64,000 nt of DNA from a virus (taxonomy: Duplodnaviria > Caudoviricetes). The stretch is from IMG/VR virus record IMGVR_UViG_3300005512_002353. One strand, given 5' to 3'. Each line of letters opens with the position of its first letter. The first letter of the stretch is position 1. The position numbers and the translations under genes are program-made. The notes beneath the pieces are model-generated. The model was given only the letters and a program-made list of their open reading frames with translations. It ran no database searches and was not told the origin of the DNA. Positions 5,207 through 59,219 of this stretch are shown here, one piece after another.

Positions 5207-6112
5207 ATAACTTTCAAAGTGCTTATACACTAACCCCTGTCTCAGTTCCTCGTCACTCCAATGGCAAGCCGCAAGATCCCATAACCATTGTTCCCTATCT
5301 GGTAATCTTGGTGCAGTATCAATATTCGATAGATCAGTGTTAGCAACCTTGTATGTAACAGCATCCTCATCAGAGACATATACCGGAATACCTTTCAATA
5401 TGGCCGCAACTGAACTTGATGAATTATAGAACACTGCGGCCCAGGCTCCCTCTAGATCAGCATCAAGTGTGCTACCTTTGACTGACTCGTATACGTTAGG
5501 AAATCCTTTAACCTTGGCTATGGTTTCCTTCATTGGTCGTTTGGGGTGTGGTCTTACCAGTATTGGCCTGTTGCTCACTGCTCTGATCTTCTTGACTGTC
5601 ATTATCAACCAACGTTCTAAATCCTCGCCTTTCATATTCCATCCGCCATCTCTCTGTAGACAAATTAATATATGATTGCCATCCTGTCTCCAAGGTAACA
5701 TATTAGGTATGCGTAGATCATGCCTTATCTGATTCCATTTATTAGGAGAACTGTTCTTGTTTGCATATTCATGTTGATTGTAGAATACACCATCTAAACT
5801 ATAGCGAACATACATCGATTTAGGATCAGCAAACTTAAAGCATGACCCATCTATAGGCATGACATGATTGCCAGTTCGCTGTTGCCTCATGATGACATTG
5901 TTGCGTAGGTGTATGTGTGGTCCTTTGAAAGTCTGTCCTACCCAGCCGATCATTACTGCCAGTTTACAGTCAACAACCTGTTGTTCTGTTTGATCTAACA
6001 CACGCAGACCTAAACGCTTACAGCCTTCAGAGAACGCCCTCATGATCTGAACCTTGCGATCATGATCTGCTATACGAGGTAAACTAGAGAAATATACTAC
6101 GACATCATACAT
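5195..6112 (-). CDS. KpsC/KpsS-like GT-B protein, paralogue 2
   Basis: VRPHP, FYNSSSSVAAILKGIPV, REQWLWDLAACHW; likely start MYDVVVYF at 6112. Confidence 0.6.
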   Translation of the reverse strand: MYDVVVYFSSLPRIADHDRKVQIMRAFSEGCKRLGLRVLDQTEQQVVDCKLAVMIGWVGQTFKGPHIHLRNNVIMRQQRTGNHVMPIDGSCFKFADPKSMYVRYSLDGVFYNQHEYANKNSSPNKWNQIRHDLRIPNMLPWRQDGNHILICLQRDGGWNMKGEDLERWLIMTVKKIRAVSNRPILVRPHPKRPMKETIAKVKGFPNVYESVKGSTLDADLEGAWAAVFYNSSSSVAAILKGIPVYVSDEDAVTYKVANTDLSNIDTAPRLPDREQWLWDLAACHWSDEELRQGLVYKHFESYLKA

Positions 6113-21612: not shown

Positions 21613-23181
21613 CTAAAACATTATAAAGGGCATTGGCTCTACATCTACGTCTGTGTGATCAGTCATATTCTCGCCAAGGTCTTTGTGATACTGCTGTATC
21701 TGTTGCATCATACGAACTACCAACACTGTGGCCATGACTAGATCATCGTGTTCGCCGGGTTTGGCCGCATAACTGGTGCCTGATGCTACAAAGTTCTTGA
21801 GCTCACTGATTAGAGGTTGTGATTTGATCTGTAGTCTACCTGTTTCAATTAAAGTTTTTAATTTTGAGCAGGCCGCAATCTTTGACTTGTTTGTTGTGTT
21901 AAAGCCTTTACGGAATCTTCTGCCTTGTCCTGCTTTCTTATCTTCACTTAAGAACAAACCCTGTATGTTTTCCTCGCCAAAGTCTGCTATTGATATTAAG
22001 GCCGCTTCACCTATGGTGTTGTTCTCAACTGAAAAGTAGATGTTGTTTTGATCCACACCTTTGTCTCTTAAATGTTTGATAATGTCTGAGAACACACGCA
22101 CCTGTTCAGGTATTGTAGTCTTATTGTGTTTCCATTCTGCTATCTGTGTCATTGATGTGGCATCAAATATTTCCATGGCCGAGTAGTCACCGCCTGTTCC
22201 TAGACTAGGATCCCATCCTACTGTGTAGATATGGTCTGCTACTATTTCATTATACCAACGAACCTGTCCTGTCTTGTTCACGGGTTCGATGCCTTTCATA
22301 TCCAAGAGGTGTATTGGTGCTATCAGTGTCTCATCGTTGATGATAAATTCACAATCCATTTCACGACGGAAACGTTCATCACCTAGTTTGCCACGTTCTT
22401 CTTCTGCCCACTTCTCATCTCTGTCTGGATGTTCTTTCCAGTATGATCTGTATGCCTTGAATCCGTTAACACCTACTTCTGTTTGATTGCCGTTGGCATC
22501 TTCACACTTATTAGCACCCTTCCATAACAAGGCAAACTGATCCTCGTCTGAGTTAGGTGTCGATGTGATAATGGCCTTACCACCTGTTGCCAGTGTAGGT
22601 GATATTGAAGTCCAGAACTCACGGGCAATGGTAGGCCTCACAAAAGCAAACTCGTCACAGTATAGCATTGATATAGACATACCTCGACCAGTGTTTTCAG
22701 TTGTCGTCTGTGCTACAATTCGACTGCCGTTGTCAAACTCCAGTGATCCCTTGTTGTAACTGACAGCACCTGCACGGATATGATCTGGACATGCTTCGTA
22801 AGCATAACGGACACGTTGCATGATCTCTTGGGCGCCTGCGTATTTGTGTGCGGCCACCAACACTGTTGAGTCTGGAACAAACATGGCGAACCATAAGAGG
22901 TAACCCGCGGCTGATGTTGACTTACCCGTCTGCCTGGGCATCATTGATATTGAGTAACGATAGTTGTGATATGTATCTATTAGACGTTCTTGATATTCGT
23001 ATGGATCATATTTGATGCCACCACGAGTTGGGTGCTGGATATGGAAAAAGTTTTCCATGAAATATCTCGCACCCATTTTGGGATCAGCACATTTCTTAAA
23101 TTCCTCTACTTGTTCTGCCGTATAGGTAACTTTAGCGTGTGCTTTTTTAATTAATACACCGTCTAATGATTTTGCCGCCAT
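21613..23181 (-). CDS. gp17: terminase large subunit (T4 gp17-like)
   Basis: PRQTGKS Walker A, LYCDEFAFV Walker B, TSTPN, HDDLVMA nuclease motif. Confidence 0.95.
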   Translation of the reverse strand: MAAKSLDGVLIKKAHAKVTYTAEQVEEFKKCADPKMGARYFMENFFHIQHPTRGGIKYDPYEYQERLIDTYHNYRYSISMMPRQTGKSTSAAGYLLWFAMFVPDSTVLVAAHKYAGAQEIMQRVRYAYEACPDHIRAGAVSYNKGSLEFDNGSRIVAQTTTENTGRGMSISMLYCDEFAFVRPTIAREFWTSISPTLATGGKAIITSTPNSDEDQFALLWKGANKCEDANGNQTEVGVNGFKAYRSYWKEHPDRDEKWAEEERGKLGDERFRREMDCEFIINDETLIAPIHLLDMKGIEPVNKTGQVRWYNEIVADHIYTVGWDPSLGTGGDYSAMEIFDATSMTQIAEWKHNKTTIPEQVRVFSDIIKHLRDKGVDQNNIYFSVENNTIGEAALISIADFGEENIQGLFLSEDKKAGQGRRFRKGFNTTNKSKIAACSKLKTLIETGRLQIKSQPLISELKNFVASGTSYAAKPGEHDDLVMATVLVVRMMQQIQQYHKDLGENMTDHTDVDVEPMPFIMF

Positions 23182-23378
23182 TACTTGTCTCTAGGCATTG
23201 GATTCTCACCTGTTAAGTGAGGTTGTGAAAACCACAACTGAAACCACTCTTTATCACCTGGTCTAATATTATGTTTACGTTGATAGGCCGCCTTTTCAGA
23301 TGCCGTGTGAGATATGTTCTCACCCATGTCAGGTGTGTCCTTAACGCCTGCTAGTCTTTTTAAGTCTTTGATGTCCAT
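23181..23378 (-). CDS. small hypothetical protein with LKRLAG motif
   Basis: 65 aa, coupled to gp17; IRPGDKEWFQLWF. Confidence 0.65.
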   Translation of the reverse strand: MDIKDLKRLAGVKDTPDMGENISHTASEKAAYQRKHNIRPGDKEWFQLWFSQPHLTGENPMPRDK

Positions 23379-24684: not shown

Positions 24685-25998
24685 TTAACTCCTTAAGGGT
24701 TCTAACCAACCAAAGTTGCCGGTCATTGTGGTGTTGTTTGAATCTGCTGTGGCTATTAGACTTAGCACGTCAGCAGTTGTGTTCTGTCTTGACAGTTGTA
24801 GTTGTCGTAACGCTTCTAAAGTAAATGTTCCTGCCTCACCCTTGTTGACTATATAGCCCGTTGCCAGTTCAGTGCCCTGGGCTGAGACTGCCGTGTTGGT
24901 CACAGAATGATCCACTGTGCCATTGGCGTGTGTGGTAAATGACAGAGGTGTTGAGAACGTGGCATTGAGAACTAGTTTATACTGTAAGTTCTGATTGCTG
25001 TCGGTCAACACATTGATGTTGTTTGGAATAACAATATCATCCAGTCTCGATGAGTTTAATTTTAAACTGACCAAGTGATAGAATGTGCCTGCCGTGGACG
25101 CGGTATAGTATGTGAGTCCACGTCCATATTGGAAACTTCTTCCACCTGGAGCAAAGCCACCACTGGATACCACTGTTGAACAGATGTGTTTCATCTGCGC
25201 CGTTGATCCAAGTGTGTCCGTTGCTTCTGCCTCATAACGCACTGGCAAGGCCGCCGTGGTCATGTATGTTGATGTTGATAGGTTAGCGTGATGGAACTTG
25301 TGTGCGAAGACAAAAGCGCCATTGATCACGAAGCCTGCTCTTACCGTGCCCACGCCCAACCACTCAATGTCTATGAACAAGATCTGTGATTTAGTTAGAT
25401 CTAGTGTTAGGTCACTGGGACCGTTGCCATCCAGTGTGTCCGTGTTCCAGTCTGCTTGTGCCACTCTGGTCTCTACCACAGAACCTGAGGATTTAGATCT
25501 TAGCACTAGGTAAACATCACTGCCATCCTGTTCTAGGAACACACCGTTTTCCGTGCCAAAGTATCCCACACGCTGACGTAAATTGGTCTGTGGTGAATCC
25601 ATTGTAAATGTGGCAAATATCTCTAGGGCCTTGCCTGGCTGATATGGAAATACCTTTGTGGTTTCCATCACGGCCTTGCTACCACTGGTCGTGGCCAAGT
25701 TCATATTAACCACACTGGCGTTGGCATCGTGTGCTATTGTAGCACCACTGGCCGTTGAGGTCCAATACTTGTCGTTCTGTGCGTATCTATGTTGGCTGTC
25801 AAATAAGGTGTAAGGTTGTGCCACCTGCTGGCGACCAAATGCGTCAATGCCGTCCGTGGCTGATGCTGATGTTGAACCCGTGACACGTATGATCGGTTGA
25901 CCAAGAGCATTATACTCCATGGCCTTATGAATATTAAAGAGGTTACTCTCCTGTGGATGTTCGTAGGCTGTTGAATTATTATTTGCTCTATCTACCAT
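24685..25998 (-). CDS. putative virion structural protein (beta-rich)
   Basis: 437 aa, DAFGR motif, YQPGK, EWLGVG, S/T-rich. Confidence 0.5.
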   Translation of the reverse strand: MVDRANNNSTAYEHPQESNLFNIHKAMEYNALGQPIIRVTGSTSASATDGIDAFGRQQVAQPYTLFDSQHRYAQNDKYWTSTASGATIAHDANASVVNMNLATTSGSKAVMETTKVFPYQPGKALEIFATFTMDSPQTNLRQRVGYFGTENGVFLEQDGSDVYLVLRSKSSGSVVETRVAQADWNTDTLDGNGPSDLTLDLTKSQILFIDIEWLGVGTVRAGFVINGAFVFAHKFHHANLSTSTYMTTAALPVRYEAEATDTLGSTAQMKHICSTVVSSGGFAPGGRSFQYGRGLTYYTASTAGTFYHLVSLKLNSSRLDDIVIPNNINVLTDSNQNLQYKLVLNATFSTPLSFTTHANGTVDHSVTNTAVSAQGTELATGYIVNKGEAGTFTLEALRQLQLSRQNTTADVLSLIATADSNNTTMTGNFGWLEPLRS

Positions 25999-26270: not shown

Positions 26271-26690
26271 TTAGGAAGTTCTGTCCTTGTCGTCTATGGC
26301 TCCGCCACTCACCCATGCTGAGCATGATCTAGTGCCGGCACATTTAAAATGTAGGAAGTTGCAGTAACCAATGTCTGCTTTGTGTATAGTTGCCATAGCA
26401 TCTGCTGACTTTTCGTCACCCTGTATGCCTGACTCTATGCAAGACCACATTTGATCTGAAACATCAAATGCTCCACAGTTATTACACTTCATAGTCTTTG
26501 CTGTTGTTTCTTTGATGTCCCAGCGTTTAGCCGCATCCTTCCAATAGTTCTCTGGTTGATCAGGATTTGCTGGACCGTAGTGATATTCGTCAATGGCCTT
26601 CTGTCTATTCTTGAGATTAACATCAATGTCCTGTGTGGCAACCGGACATCCTTTTACTGCGGCCTCTACTATGTTGATATAATTTCTCAT
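26271..26690 (-). CDS. Cys-containing putative head protein
   Basis: N-terminal MRNYINIVE tag; CNNC...GYC....FKC...RSC..W metal-binding-like pattern. Confidence 0.6.
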   Translation of the reverse strand: MRNYINIVEAAVKGCPVATQDIDVNLKNRQKAIDEYHYGPANPDQPENYWKDAAKRWDIKETTAKTMKCNNCGAFDVSDQMWSCIESGIQGDEKSADAMATIHKADIGYCNFLHFKCAGTRSCSAWVSGGAIDDKDRTS

Positions 26691-27175
26691 TTCTTATACT
26701 TGTTGGTTACGTTCTTAGCCTTACCACGTCTTTCTTTGTTTGGATCTTTTCTACGTTTTCTACGCACTGCTTGTGCTATTGCTTTTTTACCACCCTTGGC
26801 TCTTAGTTTAGCCGCGGCTGACTTTGATAAACATTTAGGCTTGCCTTCCTTCTCACTAGCATCGCCACACTTACCAATGCGTTCACCCTTAGTGTTGTAG
26901 CGATCCCAACCGCCACCTCCGGCTCCGCCTTTCTTACCCTTGCCAAACCAATCACGTAGATTTTCTTCAACGTCTGTTTTATCTTCTTTCTTAACACAGT
27001 TCGGAACACGTTTGCCAAACATGGTCTTCATGCCTTTCTTTTCATATCCGTCCCAACACTTCTCGTCAGTTCTTGATTTTTTAGGACTCTTGCGACACTT
27101 TACTTTCTTGTCAGTAGAACAGTAGTATTCACCATACTGACAATTAAGTTCTGTGATAAATTCTGAACTACGCAT
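26687..27175 (-). CDS. basic modular putative internal head protein
   Basis: MRSSEFITE tag; three Cys-paired basic modules separated by Glu linkers. Confidence 0.6.
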   Translation of the reverse strand: MRSSEFITELNCQYGEYYCSTDKKVKCRKSPKKSRTDEKCWDGYEKKGMKTMFGKRVPNCVKKEDKTDVEENLRDWFGKGKKGGAGGGGWDRYNTKGERIGKCGDASEKEGKPKCLSKSAAAKLRAKGGKKAIAQAVRRKRRKDPNKERRGKAKNVTNKYKK

Positions 27176-28014
27176 TACTTACTCTTGTTACCCCAATTCT
27201 TAGCACCTTTCTTGCGACACTGCACTAGTGCACCTGAAGCATACGCACTAGGCCATACCTTGTATCTTGCTTTTACCTTGTGGTAGCAGGCATCCTTCTT
27301 GGCTTCTTCATCCATCATTGTATCATCGTTCTCAATACTGTCACCAAAACGTTGTCTGTATGCGTTAGCACCCATGCTATTTCTAGAACCAATTACCTTG
27401 TGTCCTTCTCCTGCAAGTAATAAATCATACATTAATTTAATGACCTTCATAGGAGATGTTAAACTATCAACCCTATCATAGAAATAACTGATCTTTTCTG
27501 GTTTCATTCTTCTGACTGGCTTACCTTTAATCAGTTTCTTGGCTTGTGCCTTCATGGTTTCTAAGTCTCTGACTTTTTCTAAATTTTTAATGTCATCAAT
27601 GGTGAAGTTGTCTTCTTCAGTGGCATCCTCGTGCATGCCAAAGTTACCTGATGTGGGAACCTGTTTAATGCCTTTTTCTGCCGCATAGGCATCTACTGAC
27701 ATAGCGAGCTGGAAATCTAGTATTGTAAGGCCCTTAACGTCAAACGTAGACGTCTTTACAGTTACTTCTGCAACATCCTGTGTCACTTCCGCAAAGTGAT
27801 CCATGTCCTCTGATAGCTCATTGATGAACACTATCATTTCCTCTGCTTCTTGATGGTCTTGGCAGACATACATGGCATGTAGCTCTCTGTGATCTCGCAT
27901 GTCCCAATCGGGGAGATACTTATTCTTGATCTCATCAAGTTGTTCGTCGCTAGGAACGAACTCTTCTACATCGTTCTCTCTGTATTTGCCTTCTTGGAAT
28001 TCTTCAAATTTCAT
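27175..28014 (-). CDS. modular protein with pterin-4a-carbinolamine dehydratase-like domain and basic C-terminal module
   Basis: LPDW...DHFAEV..V.V.TSTFDVKGLTILDFQLA resembles PCD; C-terminal DACYHKVKARYKVWPSAYASGALVQCRK. Confidence 0.6.
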   Translation of the reverse strand: MKFEEFQEGKYRENDVEEFVPSDEQLDEIKNKYLPDWDMRDHRELHAMYVCQDHQEAEEMIVFINELSEDMDHFAEVTQDVAEVTVKTSTFDVKGLTILDFQLAMSVDAYAAEKGIKQVPTSGNFGMHEDATEEDNFTIDDIKNLEKVRDLETMKAQAKKLIKGKPVRRMKPEKISYFYDRVDSLTSPMKVIKLMYDLLLAGEGHKVIGSRNSMGANAYRQRFGDSIENDDTMMDEEAKKDACYHKVKARYKVWPSAYASGALVQCRKKGAKNWGNKSK

Positions 28015-28427
28015 AGTGTTACCTTACCTTCTCGCAATAGTTTTTCTCTATTAACTAGATGCTTTGCCTGTATTTCTTCTTTTGAGCCGCCAAAGTATGC
28101 TACAGCGTGACCTTCTTCTACTAGAACGTCTGTTGCCATGCGTCCATCATTGGTAGTAAAGTCACCCAGGACACGACCAAACTTACCTTTGGCATCGTAT
28201 TCCTTGCATACTAACACTGCTTCTTTACCCAGTATTTCTTTTAGTCTTGCCTTACTTGCTAGACCAAACTTCTTTTCTACTTTGTCTCTTGTTCTTGATT
28301 CCGGAGTGTCAATGCCCATGATTCTAACACGTTCTTTTTTAAGTATAACGCCAAATCCTAGATCAATATCTACGTCAACAGTATCTCCGTCAACTACTCT
28401 CTGTATGTAAACTTTGTATTCAAACAT
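28011..28427 (-). CDS. thermonuclease (SNase-like) protein
   Basis: RVVDGDT, RIMGIDTPE, GKFGRVLG. Confidence 0.85.
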   Translation of the reverse strand: MFEYKVYIQRVVDGDTVDVDIDLGFGVILKKERVRIMGIDTPESRTRDKVEKKFGLASKARLKEILGKEAVLVCKEYDAKGKFGRVLGDFTTNDGRMATDVLVEEGHAVAYFGGSKEEIQAKHLVNREKLLREGKVTL

Positions 28428-28429
28428 TA

Positions 28430-28573
28430 TTAATCTCTTGCGTCAGTGTTATCGCTGTATTTTATTGTTGTAACATCTGTCTCACATTCATGACAATGAC
28501 AGTCTGGACAGTTCCAACAGTTAGTGCAACTCTGGCCACAGTGTGAGACACAGCCACAGTATTTACATTTCAT
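28430..28573 (-). CDS. 47-aa Cys-rich metallothionein-like peptide (absent from ORF track)
   Basis: MKCKYCGCVSHCGQSCTNCWNCPDCHCHECETDVTTIKYSDNTDARD; TAATG coupling to upstream gene, fills the gap exactly. Confidence 0.65.
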   Translation of the reverse strand: MKCKYCGCVSHCGQSCTNCWNCPDCHCHECETDVTTIKYSDNTDARD

Positions 28574-28923
28574 TATTTCTTCCTTTGCCACTTGGCCGCC
28601 ATTACCGGCGACTGTTTGTTAGTGTCATCCATCTCTCCGGATGGCCCTTCTGCTTCTGTTTCTGTTGCTAGACCCAGTGCCTTGTGTGCGGCATCTATCA
28701 TCTTCTTCTCTTCTGGAGTGTATGCACCAATGTATGGTTTGGCCGCCACTGAATCCGTGTCTATGTCCGCGTCATCACCAGGAGCACGAGCCATGAGCAT
28801 ACTGGCACGATATAAACCGTAGTATCTGTCACCGTTGTTAGTGTATGCGCCAGGAGTGGCTTTTGAGTGCTGTTCGTTAGGTTTACCCTGTCGGCGTTCC
28901 GATAGGAAGTCCTTGGCACGCAT
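28573..28923 (-). CDS. hypothetical putative head protein
   Basis: MRAKDFLSE tag; C-terminal DTNKQSPV. Confidence 0.6.
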   Translation of the reverse strand: MRAKDFLSERRQGKPNEQHSKATPGAYTNNGDRYYGLYRASMLMARAPGDDADIDTDSVAAKPYIGAYTPEEKKMIDAAHKALGLATETEAEGPSGEMDDTNKQSPVMAAKWQRKK

Positions 28924-29513
28924 TATATTACCTCTATCCTAACACCCTGAGCTTTTCCCTGGGTAACCACATTGTTTCGTCTTGCTTGCCAATAGACTGA
29001 ATTAAAAGACCAATCATTATTTTTACATTCATTGACTAGCTCATTGTATCCTAATATCTTTACATTCCCATCTGGAGATGTTAATTTATATTTCTGTTTA
29101 GCATTAGAACTTGCATGTCCACCTTTTTTATGCCAGTCTGTATTTTTTTTATATTTGTGATATACCTTAGCAAACGCTAATCCTGCTCGACGTTGATGTG
29201 CTATATGTGCATCTGGGTCTTGTTTTTTTAGTTCATGTAGCCAATTGCCACCGCCATATGCTTGATTATAACTCTTTGAATCTTTTACAATCTCTTCATT
29301 AACTATTTCTTTTTCAAGTTCCCAAAGATCATCTGTCGTTTCTGCAGTTGCAATTATTTCTCTTGTGAAATTTTCTTTACCGTATTTGTTAATGGCATTT
29401 TTTATGCCCTGGCCGCTACCTAAATACCCGTCATTTAGATTATCTGTAGAATGCCTGCCAATATAATATCTGCCATTGACTTTGTTAGTGGTTTTGTAGA
29501 TGATGTGTTTCAT
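28923..29513 (-). mobile_element. GIY-YIG (Seg-like) free-standing homing endonuclease gene
   Basis: IIYKTTNKVNGRYYIGRH...YLGSG...ENF.REI...E...YN; AT-rich relative to flanks. Confidence 0.85.
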
Positions 29514-30022
29514 TAATCCAAATCACTAACTTTTTTGCCTCTGCGCCACATCGCACATGACCAGTATTTGGCTTTTGTCTTGTCCTTGGCTGACGCCTTG
29601 TCACAACCATGTCTAGCACGGAATGACTTACGTCTCTTTGGATCATCTCTCTTGATTGATAGGTTAGGATCACCAAAGCGAACAACTTTAACGTTGCCTG
29701 ACTTAGGATCCTTAACGTATACCTTGAATTTTTTCTTTGGATTCTCTGATGTCCTGATCGGATCGTTAAGTTTAACTTTTTTGCCTTGATATTCTGCCTC
29801 GTCAAACACGGCAAACTCAACACCATCATCAAACTCGCATCCACAGTGTTCCAGTATCTTCTGGCACTCTTCATCCATGATCAATGTCATTGATTCTTCA
29901 TCATGTGATTCAACTATTGATTCGATCACGGTATCCATGTTAACTATGAAGTCAACATGATCATCAGTGATTGGATTTGTCCTGGCTCTCTCTGCTTCTG
30001 CTAGATAATCCTTGAAAGACAT
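29513..30022 (-). CDS. putative internal head protein, acidic N-half and basic C-half
   Basis: MSFKDYLAE tag; EAEYQGKKVKLN...VRFGD...RKSFRARHGC...YWSC. Confidence 0.6.
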   Translation of the reverse strand: MSFKDYLAEAERARTNPITDDHVDFIVNMDTVIESIVESHDEESMTLIMDEECQKILEHCGCEFDDGVEFAVFDEAEYQGKKVKLNDPIRTSENPKKKFKVYVKDPKSGNVKVVRFGDPNLSIKRDDPKRRKSFRARHGCDKASAKDKTKAKYWSCAMWRRGKKVSDLD

Positions 30023-30023
30023 A

Positions 30024-31370
30024 TTAGTTGCCCTTGTATTTTGCGTAGAGATTCATCATGTTCTCTGCTATGTCATTCTTTGATTCCGTGTGCAGTGGAT
30101 TTGAATTTGATTTCAATGCTGACTTGTCCTTGGGACCGTTTACACCACCTGACATGTCTTTAACCTGTGCATCAACTGTAGAAGTCTTCTCACGTGGGCT
30201 ATTTGTGTATTCTGGATCACGCTCTTCTTCTACTGCTTCTGGATCACCTTCATACTCTTTATAACCATCTGAACGCATACCTGATAGTTTCATTAGGTCC
30301 TTGACCATATCAGCATGTGCATTGTTAGCATTGATATTGATAGTTTCCTGGCCCTCGTCATCGATAGACTGTGTAACTTGTAGACCTTCGTTTAATTGTT
30401 CACTGTATTTCTTCTCAAAGTCTTCCATCATTGAATCTAAGTTTAACTCTTCTGATTCTTTCTTAGGACGACCCTTGCCTCTCTTAGGAGCATCTGGATC
30501 TACCATTGGATCTTCAGGTTCTAATGATTGAACTTTAACACCTGACTTGGTATATTTGTAATGACGTTTCTTGCCATCCTTGAATGTAACAGTAAAGCCT
30601 TGAGCGCCATCTTCTGGACGATCCATTTGAACCTTGTGTCCTTCTTTCTCATGTTTGTCAACGATACCTTTAACATGGGCAGGATCATATGCTTCGTCTA
30701 ATTCAATTTCTTCCACTTCGTCAAGGATCTCTTCTTCCTCAGAAACTTTCTCGTTCTTCTCATACTGCTCTGGAGTTGTGTCTTCTTCTTTCATTTCTTC
30801 CTTGTCCTTGGCCGCTTTCTTCATTGGCTCTTTCTTGTCGCCATCTTTGTCTAAGTCTAGGAAGTCTGGTTTCGCTTCTTCGATCGTTTCCTCAACACCT
30901 TCATACATCTGAACACTTTGGACTATTGCCCCTTCGCCGCCTGCTGAGTAGTCTTCTTTATTTTCGCTCTGTAAAATATCATATGCCTTTGCTTCAGCTT
31001 CTTGTTCAGAGTTTGCTTCTACATCCATTTCATATGTAACAAGATCAGTGGCTTTTACAAACCATTCTGCTTCTGTTAACGCTTTTTCTTTTACTTCAAC
31101 TGACTCGTTTGTAGTGTCAGGAGCATCTGTTTGAACGTTTAATGTTTGGATACCTGCTAGTTTAGCATATTCCACAGGATTCTCTTCTGCTACAGGTTGA
31201 TATACTTCTTGTCCTGTTGCTGAAACTGTGTTGGTCTCTGGCATTAGAGCGTTTGTTGCAGATGGATTGGTAGGGTTGTTCATCTTCTCTGCGTTCTCAA
31301 TAGCTCTCGCCTGATCCTCATTTGGGTTTTCAATTGCTTTTAATTTTGATAATACGTCATACATTTCCAT
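30024..31370 (-). CDS. acidic modular prohead/internal protein
   Basis: 448 aa, very Glu-rich, KPDFLDLDKDGDKKEPMKKA, AT-hook-like KRGKGRPKK, two LAG/LSG motifs. Confidence 0.6.
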   Translation of the reverse strand: MEMYDVLSKLKAIENPNEDQARAIENAEKMNNPTNPSATNALMPETNTVSATGQEVYQPVAEENPVEYAKLAGIQTLNVQTDAPDTTNESVEVKEKALTEAEWFVKATDLVTYEMDVEANSEQEAEAKAYDILQSENKEDYSAGGEGAIVQSVQMYEGVEETIEEAKPDFLDLDKDGDKKEPMKKAAKDKEEMKEEDTTPEQYEKNEKVSEEEEILDEVEEIELDEAYDPAHVKGIVDKHEKEGHKVQMDRPEDGAQGFTVTFKDGKKRHYKYTKSGVKVQSLEPEDPMVDPDAPKRGKGRPKKESEELNLDSMMEDFEKKYSEQLNEGLQVTQSIDDEGQETININANNAHADMVKDLMKLSGMRSDGYKEYEGDPEAVEEERDPEYTNSPREKTSTVDAQVKDMSGGVNGPKDKSALKSNSNPLHTESKNDIAENMMNLYAKYKGN

Positions 31371-31382
31371 GGTCTATGTCTC

Positions 31383-31964
31383 CTATCTAGCAAACGACTT
31401 AACGTTTGGTAGTTTTGGTTTCACGCTACCCATGGCTGACTTATCACCCATCGGTAAATCATTCGTTGTTTCTGCTTTTGGTGTGTCGCCTCCAGCAATC
31501 TTAAATCTCGTTGGTGTCTCTGGAACTACTTTTGCTGGATCAGCATAGGCCTCACCTGCTTCTTTTGATTGTTCCTCGTAATCTTTTTCCAAGATTGGTG
31601 CCTCTTCTGGTTCAGCACCCTCGTTCTCTTCATAAGATTGTGCAAAGTGCTCACTCACGATCTTGATCTGCGACTTAGGTCTGCGTGTGCAACTCTCGAT
31701 CATGTCGTAGAGTGCGTCCTGTCCTGCAGGATAAGCGATCTCAACCTCAAACATGCAGACTTCCATGTTCTTAACACCTGGAAAGTCCAATGGATCTTCC
31801 ATAACTGGTGTGGTCTTTGGAGAGCTCATGTTGATGAGATCAAATTTTGCCAACTTGGTCTCTAATTCTTTTAGACATTCGTTATCGCAACCGCCGGCCA
31901 CTTTAACTCTGTATTTGTAAGTCTGTTCAGACTCTAGTAAATATTGATAATATGTTTTTGTCAT
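31383..31964 (-). CDS. putative head protein
   Basis: MTKTYYQYLLE tag; exact TATAAATA late promoter upstream. Confidence 0.6.
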   Translation of the reverse strand: MTKTYYQYLLESEQTYKYRVKVAGGCDNECLKELETKLAKFDLINMSSPKTTPVMEDPLDFPGVKNMEVCMFEVEIAYPAGQDALYDMIESCTRRPKSQIKIVSEHFAQSYEENEGAEPEEAPILEKDYEEQSKEAGEAYADPAKVVPETPTRFKIAGGDTPKAETTNDLPMGDKSAMGSVKPKLPNVKSFAR

Positions 31965-31985: not shown

Positions 31986-31993
31986 TATTTATA
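31986..31993 (-). promoter_or_regulatory. T4-type late promoter TATAAATA
   Basis: Exact octamer heading the block of tagged genes. Confidence 0.7.
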
Positions 31994-31998
31994 CAGTT

Positions 31999-32490
31999 TT
32001 AATCTTTTGAGTCTTTATTTTTCAACAGTTTTTCCAGCATCTCGTTCCTATCTAGGACGTATCCCTCGCCTGTCTCTATAGGCTCATCCTTGCTCTTGCG
32101 TTGATCCTGTGCGGCCTTCTTTAACTGTAGATCAATCATCTTAAGTTTCTTGTTAATCTTTGCCGTCTTGGCTGATATGGCATGTCCTAACATGTTGTTG
32201 GCAACACCAAAAATTTCACTAGCAAAGCGTGAATCTACGTTAAAGCCAAGATCCATGAGGTCCTGATAACTGTTTTTAGCAAGTTCTGCTAGATCATCCA
32301 TCTCTTGATCACTGGCTTCTAGGCCTTTGACCGCCGGCAGTGCTGATTCTATCTTATCTATGTTAGCAAAAGTGTCTGCTGGCACAGGTGTCTGTGCTTG
32401 TTCAACAGGCTCTTTTAATTCGTTGTCTTCCTCTTTCTCTACAGGTTCTATAGGATCAAGGTCAAATAGCTCTTCTAGTTTCTTTGTCAT
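31999..32490 (-). CDS. putative terminase small subunit
   Basis: 163-aa helical protein next to gp4, C-terminal DRNEMLEKL; size and position inference only. Confidence 0.45.
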   Translation of the reverse strand: MTKKLEELFDLDPIEPVEKEEDNELKEPVEQAQTPVPADTFANIDKIESALPAVKGLEASDQEMDDLAELAKNSYQDLMDLGFNVDSRFASEIFGVANNMLGHAISAKTAKINKKLKMIDLQLKKAAQDQRKSKDEPIETGEGYVLDRNEMLEKLLKNKDSKD

Positions 32491-32927
32491 TATCTCGCAC
32501 CACTTCTAAAAATATCTTCTTCGGTTACCACACGGAATGTTATGCCGTTGGCCTTACACCACTTAGCGGCCTGTTCCCATTTAGCGTGATTGAGAGCAAC
32601 TGTCTCTCGGAGGCGACGGTTTTTGTTCTTGCTCTCCACTATGCTTTGGTCCTTAGGTTTGATTTCCACCAGCTCTGTAACTAATTTACCACTTTTGTTC
32701 TGGTATTGGACTAAAAAGTCAGGTATGTAGTTACGGTTCTTGCCAGTGAATGGATCTTTGTATGGAATTTTTACGGACTCACTTGCCCACTTGACCACGC
32801 TTGGATGTGTGTCACAGAACTTCATGAAAGCATGTTCCCAACCTGAACGATACGTGGGTGCCTTAACACCAACATACTTGTCAGGATTCATTATTGTGAA
32901 CTTGCCTTTAGCCCACTTGCCTGCCAT
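32490..32927 (-). CDS. gp4: head completion nuclease (T4 gp4-like, TnsA fold)
   Basis: NPDKY, YRSGWE, WASE, YIPDF, VEIKP, KWEQA. Confidence 0.9.
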   Translation of the reverse strand: MAGKWAKGKFTIMNPDKYVGVKAPTYRSGWEHAFMKFCDTHPSVVKWASESVKIPYKDPFTGKNRNYIPDFLVQYQNKSGKLVTELVEIKPKDQSIVESKNKNRRLRETVALNHAKWEQAAKWCKANGITFRVVTEEDIFRSGAR

Positions 32928-39998: not shown

Positions 39999-40403
39999 CT
40001 ATTTGCGTTTAGGTCCTTTTGGAGATATCTTCTTTAGGAAAGGTGTTTTTGGTTTAGCACGTTTTGACGTTGCTACTTTCTTAGGTTTGAGAACTTTCTT
40101 GAGTGCGTCTCTGCGTTTGAATTTGTTTAGGGCCTGCATTATACGGCTTGCCACGTTTACTTTTTTAGTTTTCTTTGCTCTGCGTGCCTGCACTGCCTTG
40201 GTTCTGGCACGGGTCTTTTTCATTTGGGCTCGTTTAGCGACGTCAACTGATGCACCGCACTGTGCTGGACTTGATACCAGTCTACCTGCACGATTACCAG
40301 TTTCGCAACGCCATTTCATTTTAACCTTGGCCTTGCCAGAAGCACCGCCCTTGCCTACACGGGCAAAGACCATACCTTCTGATATGATGTCACTGATCTT
40401 CAT
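39999..40403 (-). CDS. very basic putative internal/DNA-condensing protein
   Basis: MKISDIISE tag followed by K/R-rich body. Confidence 0.6.
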   Translation of the reverse strand: MKISDIISEGMVFARVGKGGASGKAKVKMKWRCETGNRAGRLVSSPAQCGASVDVAKRAQMKKTRARTKAVQARRAKKTKKVNVASRIMQALNKFKRRDALKKVLKPKKVATSKRAKPKTPFLKKISPKGPKRK

Positions 40404-55474: not shown

Positions 55475-56650
55475 TTATGAGAATGATAAGTTAGATACTG
55501 CAATTTCGCCAACGTAGTCACCAGCATTACCAAATGATGATGCTGTGTTTGTTAATTCTACGTAGCCATAACGTGTTAAGAATGATACTACTGGTTCAAA
55601 TGTTGATGGATCTAAAACAACACCTGAGCTCATTAATGGAACGTATGGGCAATAGAACGCCGCCGCATCTGATTCGCTTGAGCCTTTGTAACCAACTAAT
55701 ACTGCTGTTGTGTCTGAAGCGTATGAGTCAACAAAAATTCTCATAGCACCGTTTAATGTGCCAACGAATTTAGTGTTTGTTGGTGCTTCAAATGTGCCTT
55801 CAGTTGATCTTGCGAACGCTGAAGTTGTAGCAGATTGTAATACTGTTAATGCCGCTGGAGATACAACAGCCCAGTTACCTGCGCCACGACGTGTTCTTTG
55901 AGCGATCAAGTTAGCAGTTCTGTTAATTAAAACAGCAAGTGCCGCATGCTCGTCACCAACGAATGTCGCTGTGCCTGATACTGTAGATTGGTTGTATGTA
56001 AACTCTGTAGCCGCTAATGAACGTAAAGATGCTAAGATCTCTTGATCGATTTCAGCAGTAATTTCTTGTGCTAAAGCCGCCATGATCTCTGCTTCTACGT
56101 CGATGCCGTGCATAGCTTGTGCATCCTGAGCCGCTTCAAATGTCCAACGTGCTTGTAATTTACGTGTTTTTGCTTCAACAGCCTGTTTCAAGATTTGAAC
56201 TGAGATCTTACGACCGCCTGTTCCTTCTTTAGCCGCTGTTACATCGGCGTTACCGGCAGTGCCGTCACCTGAATAAGCAGTAGCAATCTTGAATGGTGAT
56301 AATGCTTCGTCGCCTGCTGTTACATCGTTAGCAGTGCCTGTAGCATTGTTTGTTTCTGCATAACGCACTCTTAATGTGTGGATTTGACCAACTGGGCCAG
56401 TCATTGGTTGAACACCAACGATTTCGTTAGCGATAACTGTTGGCATCACACGTCTGATAACAGGTAGGATAACACGGTTAAGTGTTGCTACGTTACCAGC
56501 TGTTGTTGTGCCAGCCGCTGATGTCTCCATCAAGTGCTTCTTGGTGTTTTCTAAAACAACACCCATTGCGTTTCTTTTATTACCTTGGAGGCCTTCTAAT
56601 AATGCTTCTTTAGTTTCACCCCAACGGCTTTCAAGTAGTTCTTGTGACAT
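55475..56650 (-). CDS. gp23: major capsid protein (gp23-like)
   Basis: GVQPMTGP, AKTRKLQARW..EAAQD, EIDQEI, FYCPYVPL, TRYG. Confidence 0.96.
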   Translation of the reverse strand: MSQELLESRWGETKEALLEGLQGNKRNAMGVVLENTKKHLMETSAAGTTTAGNVATLNRVILPVIRRVMPTVIANEIVGVQPMTGPVGQIHTLRVRYAETNNATGTANDVTAGDEALSPFKIATAYSGDGTAGNADVTAAKEGTGGRKISVQILKQAVEAKTRKLQARWTFEAAQDAQAMHGIDVEAEIMAALAQEITAEIDQEILASLRSLAATEFTYNQSTVSGTATFVGDEHAALAVLINRTANLIAQRTRRGAGNWAVVSPAALTVLQSATTSAFARSTEGTFEAPTNTKFVGTLNGAMRIFVDSYASDTTAVLVGYKGSSESDAAAFYCPYVPLMSSGVVLDPSTFEPVVSFLTRYGYVELTNTASSFGNAGDYVGEIAVSNLSFS

Positions 56651-56672: not shown

Positions 56673-57764
56673 TTATAGTCCGGCCAATTTGCGTAAGTCG
56701 ATGACCTGTGTGTCTTCGTCTTTCGCTTCAACTGGCGCAGGTTTATCCCCAGTAACTTCCTTAACAGATTCTGTAAGTGTCGATTTCTTAGACTTCACTA
56801 CATTCTCGTTAAGCACCGCTGGGAGATACTTGTTAAAAGCATTCTCTAATTTCTTAGTTTGAACGCCTTCTAATAAATTACGCATCACTTCTGCTTTCTC
56901 GTCATTCAACGTTTCAAGCAACTCGTCTAACTTAGCGTTACGCTCGTTAGTTTCGTTGATAATGCGGATATCTTTTTCTTTGGCTTCGACCAACGCTTTG
57001 GTTTCGTCGAGTGCCTTGGTTGATTCCTCTAATTGCTGGTTTTTCTCTTCGATCTGTGCCATTAACTTGCGGATCTCAGCATTCTCATTTAAATGAGTGC
57101 CTGCGAATTCGCTAGCAAATGTTTCGAAGATCTTTCTACCAAAACTGTTCTCACGAGCAATTTTGATATCTTCCTGTAATTGAGAAAGTTCAGCTTTCAA
57201 GTGCTTGGCAACAGCAGTTGACATCTTCTCGCTTGATTCTGTAACGAACTTAGTTTTAAGTTCCTCAAGTTTCTCACGAGCCTCTGCAACAAGTTTAACT
57301 TTAGTCTCTACAACGTCCTGTTTATCTTGAGCAAATTCTTTGATTTCTTCTGCTAATTGAGCAACAACAAAGTTTTCCAATTTTTCCATTGTAGCACCAT
57401 GTTGTTTACGGTCTTCACGAAGATCTTTGATCTCTTCAGCCAACTTAGTAACCATGAAGTTATTAAATTTTTCTGCTGATTCTTTCATTTTGTTAACTTG
57501 GTTAACACGATCTTCTGCTAATTTGGCTTTTTCTTCTTTCATTTCAGCCATCTCAGTTTCAAGACTTTCTGTTACCATGCGATCGATTGCTTCAACCATT
57601 GTTGTTTTGTCGTGTTCATACTTCTGTGCGAATTCCTCGCGGATTTCTGCACGAACTTGATCGCGAACTTCATTTAACTTAGATTCCCACGCTTCGTTGA
57701 TTTCGTTGCGTGTATCTTCATTAACTAAGTCGCTATCGAGCAATGGTTTAATAACATCTAGCAT
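56673..57764 (-). CDS. gp22: prohead scaffolding/core protein (gp22-like)
   Basis: Coiled-coil E/K-rich, FGRKIFETFASEF; between protease and capsid genes. Confidence 0.85.
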   Translation of the reverse strand: MLDVIKPLLDSDLVNEDTRNEINEAWESKLNEVRDQVRAEIREEFAQKYEHDKTTMVEAIDRMVTESLETEMAEMKEEKAKLAEDRVNQVNKMKESAEKFNNFMVTKLAEEIKDLREDRKQHGATMEKLENFVVAQLAEEIKEFAQDKQDVVETKVKLVAEAREKLEELKTKFVTESSEKMSTAVAKHLKAELSQLQEDIKIARENSFGRKIFETFASEFAGTHLNENAEIRKLMAQIEEKNQQLEESTKALDETKALVEAKEKDIRIINETNERNAKLDELLETLNDEKAEVMRNLLEGVQTKKLENAFNKYLPAVLNENVVKSKKSTLTESVKEVTGDKPAPVEAKDEDTQVIDLRKLAGL

Positions 57765-57773
57765 GCCATTCTC

Positions 57774-58400
57774 CTATAATTTGAGATCCTTGATGAGTCG
57801 CATAACTTCACTCTTCAAGTATCTCTGCACTTTGGCGTCACCGTTAGCCTCTTTGGCCATGTCCAACACCTTATGACCGTGGTTCATATTCATGAGCCCT
57901 TCATAGATTGCTGTTGGATAAGCGTTTGGAGCACTAGGCTGTGACACTACATCGACAGTGATAATTTCAAAATCACTGACTTGTCCGTCGCTTTCAGAAA
58001 CGTTACCGCTTCCTCGGCTTGAAACTCCTAATTTAACACCAGAGGTCAACATAGTTTCCACTAGTTTACCCATTGGTGTTGGTAAAATCTTTAACTTACC
58101 GTAGCCGTTTGGGCCATCCATCCACATTTCTGTGATCATATGGCTCACTCGGTCTAGGTTAATTTTTAAGTCATCTGGGTGATCTACTTCACCTAAAACT
58201 GAGTAACCACCAGTGATCTGTTCATTGAGTGTTTTAACTGCTGTCTCAATCTCTTTCACCGGATATACTCGCTCGTTGGCGTTCTTTACACCACCCTGGA
58301 TGCAAATACCTTTCATGTAAAGGTCCTTGCCTGACTCTGAACCCTCAACGACGATGTTCGCCGCATTGTAGTTCAAGTGTTCCTTAAGGTGCATAGCCAT
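57774..58400 (-). CDS. gp21: prohead protease (gp21-like)
   Basis: KNANERVY, LGEVDHP, GVSSRGSG, DVVSQPSAP. Confidence 0.93.
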   Translation of the reverse strand: MAMHLKEHLNYNAANIVVEGSESGKDLYMKGICIQGGVKNANERVYPVKEIETAVKTLNEQITGGYSVLGEVDHPDDLKINLDRVSHMITEMWMDGPNGYGKLKILPTPMGKLVETMLTSGVKLGVSSRGSGNVSESDGQVSDFEIITVDVVSQPSAPNAYPTAIYEGLMNMNHGHKVLDMAKEANGDAKVQRYLKSEVMRLIKDLKL

Positions 58401-58415
58401 CTCAGTAGATTCCTA

Positions 58416-59219
58416 TTAGTTTACAGATTTCTTATTGTCTGCTTTATCCTGTTTCTCAGGAGCAGGTGCTGGAGCCATATTTGGCTCTGTTGTGCCATGT
58501 GGTAATTCCTTAGCTGTTGGAGCTGGTCTACCTTTTTCTGCTTCTGTTTTTGCAGGATGTGCGTCTGCTAATTTTTCTTTAGCACCGCCATTTGCTGGAA
58601 CTGGTGAAGATTTGTTAGTAGCATGGTCTTTGTTGTCTGCTTTAACAGGCTTTAAAGATACTGCTTCGTCAACTTGCTCTTCTGTTTCTTCAGCGATCTC
58701 TTCTTCAGATTCCATTGGCATTTCAACTTCCTCTTCTTCCTCGCCTTCTTCTTCAGCTTCGTCACCCATGTCCATATCCATTTCTGGCTCTTCTTCAGGT
58801 GCTTCTTCTTTGTCTTCGTCGTTCATTAATTCTTCGAATTCAGCCATTAACTCGTCTAGTTTGTCTTCTAAGTCAACTACACGGTCTTCTAAGTCTTCTT
58901 CGTCTTCGCCTTCTAAAGCAATACCTTCTTCGTCTGCTTCGATTTCGTCAACTAAGTTGTCAGCGGCATCGCCACCAAGTTCTTCGTCTGTGATTTCGTC
59001 AACGATTGACTCTTCAACAGCGTCTTCAGCAACTTCTTCAGTTGACTCTTCTACTGTCTCTTCGTCTGATTCTGTTGCTTCTTCAACAGTTTCTTCTTCA
59101 GCCATTAAGTTCTCGTAGATGTCACGAGATTTTTCCACAACTACTTCGTGGAACAACTCTTTGGCTTTATCTTCTTCATCATTAATGATGTATTCGATAA
59201 GTTGTTCAAATTTATTCAT
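58416..59219 (-). CDS. acidic prohead core protein (gp67/68-like position)
   Basis: Extremely Glu-rich, between portal and protease. Confidence 0.65.
   Translation of the reverse strand: MNKFEQLIEYIINDEEDKAKELFHEVVVEKSRDIYENLMAEEETVEEATESDEETVEESTEEVAEDAVEESIVDEITDEELGGDAADNLVDEIEADEEGIALEGEDEEDLEDRVVDLEDKLDELMAEFEELMNDEDKEEAPEEEPEMDMDMGDEAEEEGEEEEEVEMPMESEEEIAEETEEQVDEAVSLKPVKADNKDHATNKSSPVPANGGAKEKLADAHPAKTEAEKGRPAPTAKELPHGTTEPNMAPAPAPEKQDKADNKKSVN

Follow-up and report, generated by a model that had tools for sequence, protein, structure and literature searches.

Leader-tagged module proteins ahead of the large terminase gene of a marine T4-like jumbo phage: a candidate block of head-internal proteins

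Phage T4 marks its internal proteins with a short capsid targeting tag, MKTYQEFIAE, and these proteins are cut only once (PMC8442874). Within the tag, residues 4 and 7 (P7 and P4) serve targeting and residues 8 and 10 (P3 and P1) serve processing, with the prohead protease gp21 cleaving after L/I-x-E (PMC9026906). Here we describe a comparable block of genes at positions 26271-31964 of a 64,000-nucleotide stretch of viral DNA (IMG/VR record IMGVR_UViG_3300005512_002353; this whole stretch is the window referred to below), which, judged from its genes, comes from a marine T4-like jumbo phage with a genome of roughly 350 kb. The block holds ten tightly packed minus-strand genes, six of them tagged with short N-terminal leaders and four untagged, and is flanked on one side by a small-terminase-like gene and a gp4-type head-closure gene (31999-32927) and on the other by a phrog_1645 virion protein (24685-25998), placing it ahead of the large terminase (21613-23181). 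Taken together, leader statistics, protease substrates, module comparisons and virion data from other phages suggest, with a probability that we put near 0.6, that the block encodes head-internal proteins that would be targeted by T4-type leaders, would lose these leaders to a Peptidase_S77 protease, and would also be cut at internal junctions between modules.

Similar to T4 IPI, IPII, IPIII and Alt, the tagged proteins have a leader of about ten residues with the same key positions and an L/I-x-E end, together with an S77 protease, and similar to the T4 internal proteins they appear to be late genes with basic predicted mature products whose otherwise unrelated bodies have the leader alone in common. 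However, their bodies show no similarity to the T4 internal proteins, tagged genes are more numerous here (eight, and 15 families in relatives), and several of the window proteins string together exchangeable mini-modules and have candidate cut sites inside the chain, in contrast to the single cut of T4 internal proteins; the placement of the block in the interval from the small-terminase-like gene to the large terminase also differs from T4. Scans against Pfam, PHROGs and NCBIfam found no internal-protein or Alt family in any block protein, so what the block shares with T4 would be a mechanism, not a protein family. The cyanophage protein T4-GC119 (S-SM1 SSM1_115, S-RIM2 SWTG_00073) resembles the block in its LRDWF, C and CWxGY modules, its hydrophobic-x-Glu junctions and its position after gp16 and before a phrog_1645 structural protein, but it is one long protein (276-2985 nucleotides) that opens with a module instead of a short leader, whereas in the window the modules are spread over shorter genes, each with a leader, some fused to PCD-like or acidic domains. 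Phages phiKZ, 201phi2-1 and SPN3US also process many head-internal proteins after Glu with a gp21-related protease, often at several sites, but their propeptides span at least 100 residues, their motif is A/S/G-x-E, and they have neither a shared short leader nor a mini-module architecture. A more distant parallel comes from the adenovirus core precursors pVII and pX/mu, from which a capsid-resident viral protease releases basic DNA-associated peptides; this is an analogy of mechanism only, as virus, protease and sequences are unrelated. Full-text searches, in a literature that is incompletely covered, turned up no published account of marine phages in which shuffled mini-module polyproteins carry short T4-type leaders.

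The original prediction named eight tagged N-termini, and all eight lie on the minus strand at the coordinates it gave. Six open genes of the block, those for proteins of 193 residues (31383-31964; leader residues 1-11, 31932-31964), 169 residues (29513-30022; leader 29996-30022), 116 residues (28573-28923; leader 28897-28923), 279 residues (27175-28014; leader 27991-28014), 162 residues (26687-27175; leader 27149-27175) and 139 residues (26271-26690; leader 26664-26690), while the remaining two open a 134-residue gene (39999-40403) and a 267-residue gene (58416-59219). The leaders are 8-11 residues long and end in hydrophobic-x-Glu, with Leu or Ile at P3 and Glu at position 9-11 in seven of the eight and Phe at P3 with Glu at position 8 in the other. 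We scored each family in turn with a position matrix built from the leaders of the other seven (together with orthologues from related loci) against 355 controls, comprising 67 untagged genes and 288 decoy open reading frames (ORFs). Four leaders ranked 1st-2nd and three 11th-27th, so that seven of the eight families share the motif (combined Fisher p about 1e-7), which bears out the proposal of one tag form shared beyond chance. The motif prefers aromatic residues at P7 and P4, an acidic residue at P5, Ile or Leu at P3 and Glu at P1. In fact the T4 capsid targeting sequence itself scores 11 bits on this matrix, a value reached by 0/355 controls. At the T4 targeting positions the 193- and 169-residue families match fully (Phe or Tyr at P7, Tyr at P4), the 116- and 162-residue families are aromatic at P4 only, and the 134-residue family has Ile at both. 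The leader of the Cys-rich 139-residue protein is the one that does not fit: its I-V-E end agrees with L/I-x-E, but it ranks 129 on the shared matrix and does not match T4 at P7 and P4. It reads [YFL]-I-x-[IL]-[VIL]-E followed by A in 120/120 homologues listed, which says little because these are close (75-96% identical); protein-atlas look-ups for this protein matched only viral clusters without a name.

Conservation across relatives points the same way. A megablast search with the block found no match among 50,697 phage records, hence no close DNA-level relative in that collection, and our related-locus set consists of 56 IMG/VR metagenomic loci at 26-99% identity. Metagenomic contigs bearing genes of this kind represent 15-74% fragments of ~350-kb genomes. 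Leaders are retained on orthologues at identities as low as 26-38%; that of the 193-residue protein persists in 21 N-terminal variants (51 loci), and orthologues of this first block gene read M-K-T-Y-Y-E-Y-L-I-E. Among the ORFs of these loci 114/843 score as tagged, falling into 15 small-protein families that include tandem paralogue arrays. The expectation that tags persist while modules shuffle was thus borne out in the 56 loci, where leaders stay on orthologues and module-sized pieces are gained and lost.

The enzyme that would read these leaders is encoded in the same window. The head genes follow a T4-like order (portal, two small genes, Peptidase_S77 protease, scaffold, capsid protein), and the gp21-type prohead serine protease (57774-58400, minus strand; phrog_207, E 3.5e-58) matches PF03420 with 92.9 bits against a cut-off of 27 and the T4 gp21 structure 5JBL at E 2.3e-14. 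Its His (D-H-P) and Ser (G-V-S-S-R-G) align to positions that read Ala in the 5JBL chain; the deposited chain is an inactive mutant. The scaffold protein (56673-57764, minus strand) contains 32 hydrophobic-x-Glu sites where shuffling predicts 16.7 (z 4.8, the maximum in the window), and the major capsid protein (55475-56650, minus strand), which shares 65-69% identity with its counterparts in Vibrio phage 2.275.O, Pseudomonas phage PA5oct and further Rak2-like jumbo myoviruses, has four L/V-x-E sites within residues 1-42 and one in the other 349. Alignment with T4 gp23 puts the T4 cut point near residue 32, so that both V-L-E (32-34) and L-M-E (40-42) are candidate maturation sites; the Vibrio phage capsid protein retains both, and the L-M-E site and the gp21 homologue are as the original prediction had them. 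Scaffold and capsid propeptide follow the same site logic as the leaders. A search for S77 in five module-bearing contigs found it in the most complete one only, which is uninformative on co-occurrence because the others are 15-39% fragments. The protease has an L-K-E site of its own at residue 7 (58380-58400). A comparable L-I-E site at residue 9 of T4 gp21 has drawn discussion as a potential point of autocleavage or signal for targeting. A separate motif, D-L-[RK]-[KR]-L-A-G-[LV], occurs both at the scaffold C-terminus (56673-56700) and at the N-terminus of a terminase-adjacent 65-residue protein (23340-23378), with a similar I-L-R-L-A-G-V opening the PA5oct structural protein EST35_0203 (locus L059, 9630-9680), and may be a shared docking motif.

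Additional support comes through mass spectrometry of other phages. The PA5oct protein EST35_0202 is homologous to the 193-residue protein (itself a match to phrog_14802, virion structural protein), shares its gene order and is flagged as detected by electrospray ionization tandem mass spectrometry (ESI-MS/MS) in the virion data of that phage. T4-GC119, which is absent from the S-PM2 genome, was detected in purified S-SM1 virions with 13 peptide counts (Sullivan et al. 2010, PMC3037559 Table S8), and the same table places a cytidylyltransferase (T4-GC190) in cyanophage virions. By its GenBank label SSM1_115 is T4-GC119, and we find it to be a 495-residue chain of the same modules with the same junctions; HTVC008M and Melnitz encode fusions of cytidylyltransferase-type enzymes with these modules, preceded by a short leader. 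With the T4 key positions, the S77 protease, the scaffold and propeptide sites, the conservation on orthologues and these two virion homologues, the capsid-targeting proposal is well supported, and we consider it probable that the leaders direct their proteins to the head. A leader would bind the tagged product to the prohead core, and the S77 protease would then cut after the leader Glu and remove it.

The bodies behind the leaders differ in kind. Modular architecture, which had been proposed throughout, holds for the 162-, 279- and 169-residue proteins, whereas those of 193, 116 and 139 residues seem single-bodied. In the 162-residue protein (phrog_727, E 3.6e-18) a C..G.YYC module (27062-27148), a CWxGY module (26963-27061) and a basic LRDWF module (26690-26962, net charge +23) follow the leader. 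The 279-residue protein (phrog_727, E 7.8e-25) comprises a PCD-like (Pterin_4a-like) domain (27688-27942; PF01329, 55.1 bits against a cut-off of 26, with all NCBIfam equivalog models below their own cut-offs), an M-H-E site (27628-27636), a helical insert (residues 132-233), an M-D-E site (27307-27315) and the basic module C (27178-27303, net +10). The 169-residue protein joins an acidic N-domain (net -16) through an F-D-E junction (29798-29806) to a basic DUF5754/HVA1-type module (net +17). Moreover, comparison with a 99%-identical locus shows that the window carries extra residues 132-233 in the 279-residue protein and extra residues 38-70 in the 162-residue protein, in each case with Glu junctions on both sides; one relative has two other modules in place of module C, and another has a 43-residue gene consisting of a leader and one CWxGY module and nothing else. 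Cyanophage 'gp114-like' proteins are built from the same modules, an example being S-RIM2 SWTG_00073 in the same place after gp16 (tblastn against S-RIM2, E 2e-18, with agreeing gene order after the gp16-like gene). Relatives of the DUF5754-type module number 3,862 in the database searched (E <= 0.001), and the module occurs in Nitrosopumilaceae spindle-shaped (archaeal) viruses too, making it a very widely shared small viral protein. In Prochlorococcus phage P-SCSP1g (locus L143, 1459-1877) the major capsid gene is directly followed by a DUF6321 module encoded on its own and by another small basic gene; considering that this is a T7-like cyanopodovirus, a T4-type head is not needed for such modules to stand among structural genes.

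Whether the modular products are also cut between their modules is harder to judge, and we hold this at slightly less than an even chance. Counting non-redundant contexts from 80 module-C loci and other loci, we looked for hydrophobic-x-Glu within 8-10 residues upstream of a module. It precedes module C at 24/27 junctions (5.4 expected from random positions, 8.3 from shuffled linkers), CWxGY at 22/28 (4.5 and 6.8) and LRDWF at 20/29 (4.4 and 7.7). Behind the Glu, module C begins with Gly, Lys or Ala. Among the best 120 of the DUF5754-type relatives, 95/101 distinct leaders end in the motif, and some of these leaders are merely a ten-residue T4-like tag. In T4-like myophages (the window clade, HTVC008M gp131, Melnitz gene 18, immuto gp099) the DUF5754-type module lies behind a leader or domains ending in the motif, while the gene is leaderless and starts within one residue of the predicted cut in roseophage CRP-901 and in two Pelagibacter phages, a podovirus and a siphovirus; in CRP-901 module C is likewise a separate leaderless ORF. 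This contrast between the two groups, drawn from eight cultured phages, is the strongest argument that cutting may occur. If it does, the 162-, 279- and 169-residue products would be cut at their hydrophobic-x-Glu junctions in addition to losing the leader. The small basic Cys-pair mini-proteins released in this way would remain with the DNA, and the acidic pieces and leaders would exit the head.

It is here that the best-surviving alternative has to be weighed, namely that the proteins are targeted and lose their leaders but otherwise remain whole multi-domain products, with the hydrophobic-x-Glu before each module being inherited or structural (a helix cap or linker). The single cut of T4 internal proteins is the precedent for it; the modules are homologous, so the residues upstream of them may simply be conserved, and the T4-GC119 detection carries no information on fragment size. 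Of the Glu junctions in the window, V-E-E before the third module of the 162-residue protein, M-H-E, M-D-E and F-D-E fit, and T-D-E before its CWxGY module is off the motif. Nevertheless, the pattern of the motif survives although its P2 residue and its distance from the module differ from case to case, shuffled linkers fail to reproduce the enrichment, stand-alone genes outside T4-like phages start at the predicted cut, and the scaffold shows dense use of the motif by the protease. We therefore judge whole products unlikely. The polyprotein claim of the original prediction accordingly keeps its support from junction enrichment, leaderless stand-alone module genes and indels at module boundaries, and loses generality in that only some window junctions fit.

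A second alternative, that the tagged acidic products and perhaps others, rather than being cargo for the host, form a prohead-targeted assembly core that is chopped and expelled before DNA packaging like T4 gp67, gp68 and gp22, draws on the distribution of charge. The tagged 267-residue protein (minus strand) lies between portal and protease, has a net charge of -77 and contains 16 hydrophobic-x-Glu sites. In T4 this portal-protease interval is occupied by the core-protein genes gp67 and gp68. A 448-residue block protein without a short leader (30024-31370, minus strand; net -52) may be core or scaffold-like material too, and T4 core proteins are indeed cut into fragments that leave the head (PMC9026906). 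We also considered this protein as an orthologue of PA5oct EST35_0203 and rejected the match, the similarity being weak and C-terminal (E 0.02). Expulsion does not apply, however, to the basic products, namely the 134-residue protein (125 residues and net +39 after leader removal, with the leader as its single hydrophobic-x-Glu site) and the LRDWF, DUF5754-type and C modules, which have few or no internal sites, and homologues are detected in mature virions; we hold this alternative to be improbable. That the cargo exceeds the three internal proteins of T4 by a wide margin, as first suggested, holds as a gene count, tempered by the untagged genes and by the two acidic proteins that are perhaps expelled core.

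Returning to head-internal cargo, the pairing of acidic domains (the N-domain of the 169-residue protein and the PCD-like domain, net -17) with basic modules suggests charge masking until cutting, and the basic pieces suggest association with DNA. Defensins provide a familiar precedent, their anionic propieces neutralizing the basic part. By this logic acidic pro-domains would neutralize the basic Cys-pair modules until the protease acts, and the freed modules would correspond to the units encoded as separate genes elsewhere, forming a DNA-associated or injected library that is reshuffled between close relatives. As a tentative extension, marine T4-like phages might use a general grammar of address and cut, in which a leader plus boundary sites would allow any enzyme or mini-protein to be slotted into a cassette, taken into the prohead and set free inside it. 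That the products bind DNA or are ejected into the host is rather doubtful, and at present we can only speculate, from charge and analogy, on DNA-condensing roles or on injected anti-defense or effector functions. The DUF5754-type module, the only one modeled (pLDDT 86), is confidently predicted to form five beta strands and then helices. Its best Foldseek hit has E 0.7; in the comparison with small DNA-binding beta-barrels (Cren7/Sso7d-like), Cren7 rows at probability 0.12-0.21 are at noise level, and its sole VIA-wide match has Z 2.2.

Several observations weigh against our interpretation. The window phage and its close relatives are known from genes alone, and the virion detections concern other phages and report presence only; T4-GC119 is annotated in Syn9 yet undetected in Syn9 virions (PMC3037559). 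In the regions sampled from PA5oct and Vibrio phage 2.275.O, no leaders scored above spurious ORFs. Cyanophage multi-module proteins lack an N-terminal leader and one of them nonetheless occurs in virions, so the leader is not the sole route into the head. Four block genes are untagged, the T-D-E junction departs from the motif, the upstream motif, though enriched, might be inherited with the modules and not mark a cut, and the DUF5754-type model has no significant fold match. Finally, podoviruses, siphoviruses and archaeal spindle viruses encode the modules too, so their function would be independent of the T4-type head system. This last point, the gene-only knowledge of the clade and the four leaderless neighbors would also suit an absence of packaging, with the shared N-terminus a translation-initiation context or recombination cassette and the proteins acting in the infected cell, which is very improbable given amino-acid-level conservation at the exact T4 targeting and cutting positions, the Glu that ends every leader, the same motif in known protease substrates of this genome and two homologues that are virion proteins.

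Should head targeting and cutting operate as proposed, targeting by a ten-residue leader would be no T-even peculiarity, and abundant ocean phages would use it widely as an evolvable means of delivery. It would give a location and maturation route to thousands of unannotated small viral proteins (DUF5754, DUF6321, DUF5872-like, phrog_727), would account for enzymes such as cytidylyltransferase in cyanophage virions, and would provide a simple sequence rule to predict packaged, possibly injected proteins from metagenomes as well as naturally occurring tag variants with which foreign proteins could be packaged into phage heads.

The remaining features of the window are more easily summarized. 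A T4-type late-promoter-like TATAAATA (31986-31993, minus strand) stands 22 nucleotides upstream of the ATG at 31964, inside a 34-nucleotide gap; the octamer has five matches in the window against 3.4 expected, which is not above chance, so the late-promoter assignment made for the block rests on position. No tRNA genes were found in the window, and about 900 bases (5207-6104) hold neither a convincing ORF nor a tRNA gene. The untagged genes of the block, all on the minus strand, include, besides the 448-residue protein, a Cys-rich mini-protein of 47-53 residues (28430-28591) and an SNase-like nuclease (28011-28427; PF00565, E 1.6e-13) that keeps the same position in relatives. The latter is curious, since the textbook case of a foreign protein brought into T4 heads by means of the tag is staphylococcal nuclease. 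The fourth, a GIY-YIG homing endonuclease (28923-29513), is present in the window and a 99%-identical locus (L003) and absent from four others (L007, L013, L019, L028), and with this patchy presence it looks like a recent mobile insertion in the block. Immediately beyond it lies the gene of the 116-residue family, which forms tandem paralogue arrays in relatives; in one distant relative (locus L056, 11816-14664) four tandem tagged paralogues are followed by a tagged 166-residue protein with a GNAT-like R-R-G-I-A motif, possibly a packaged acetyltransferase.

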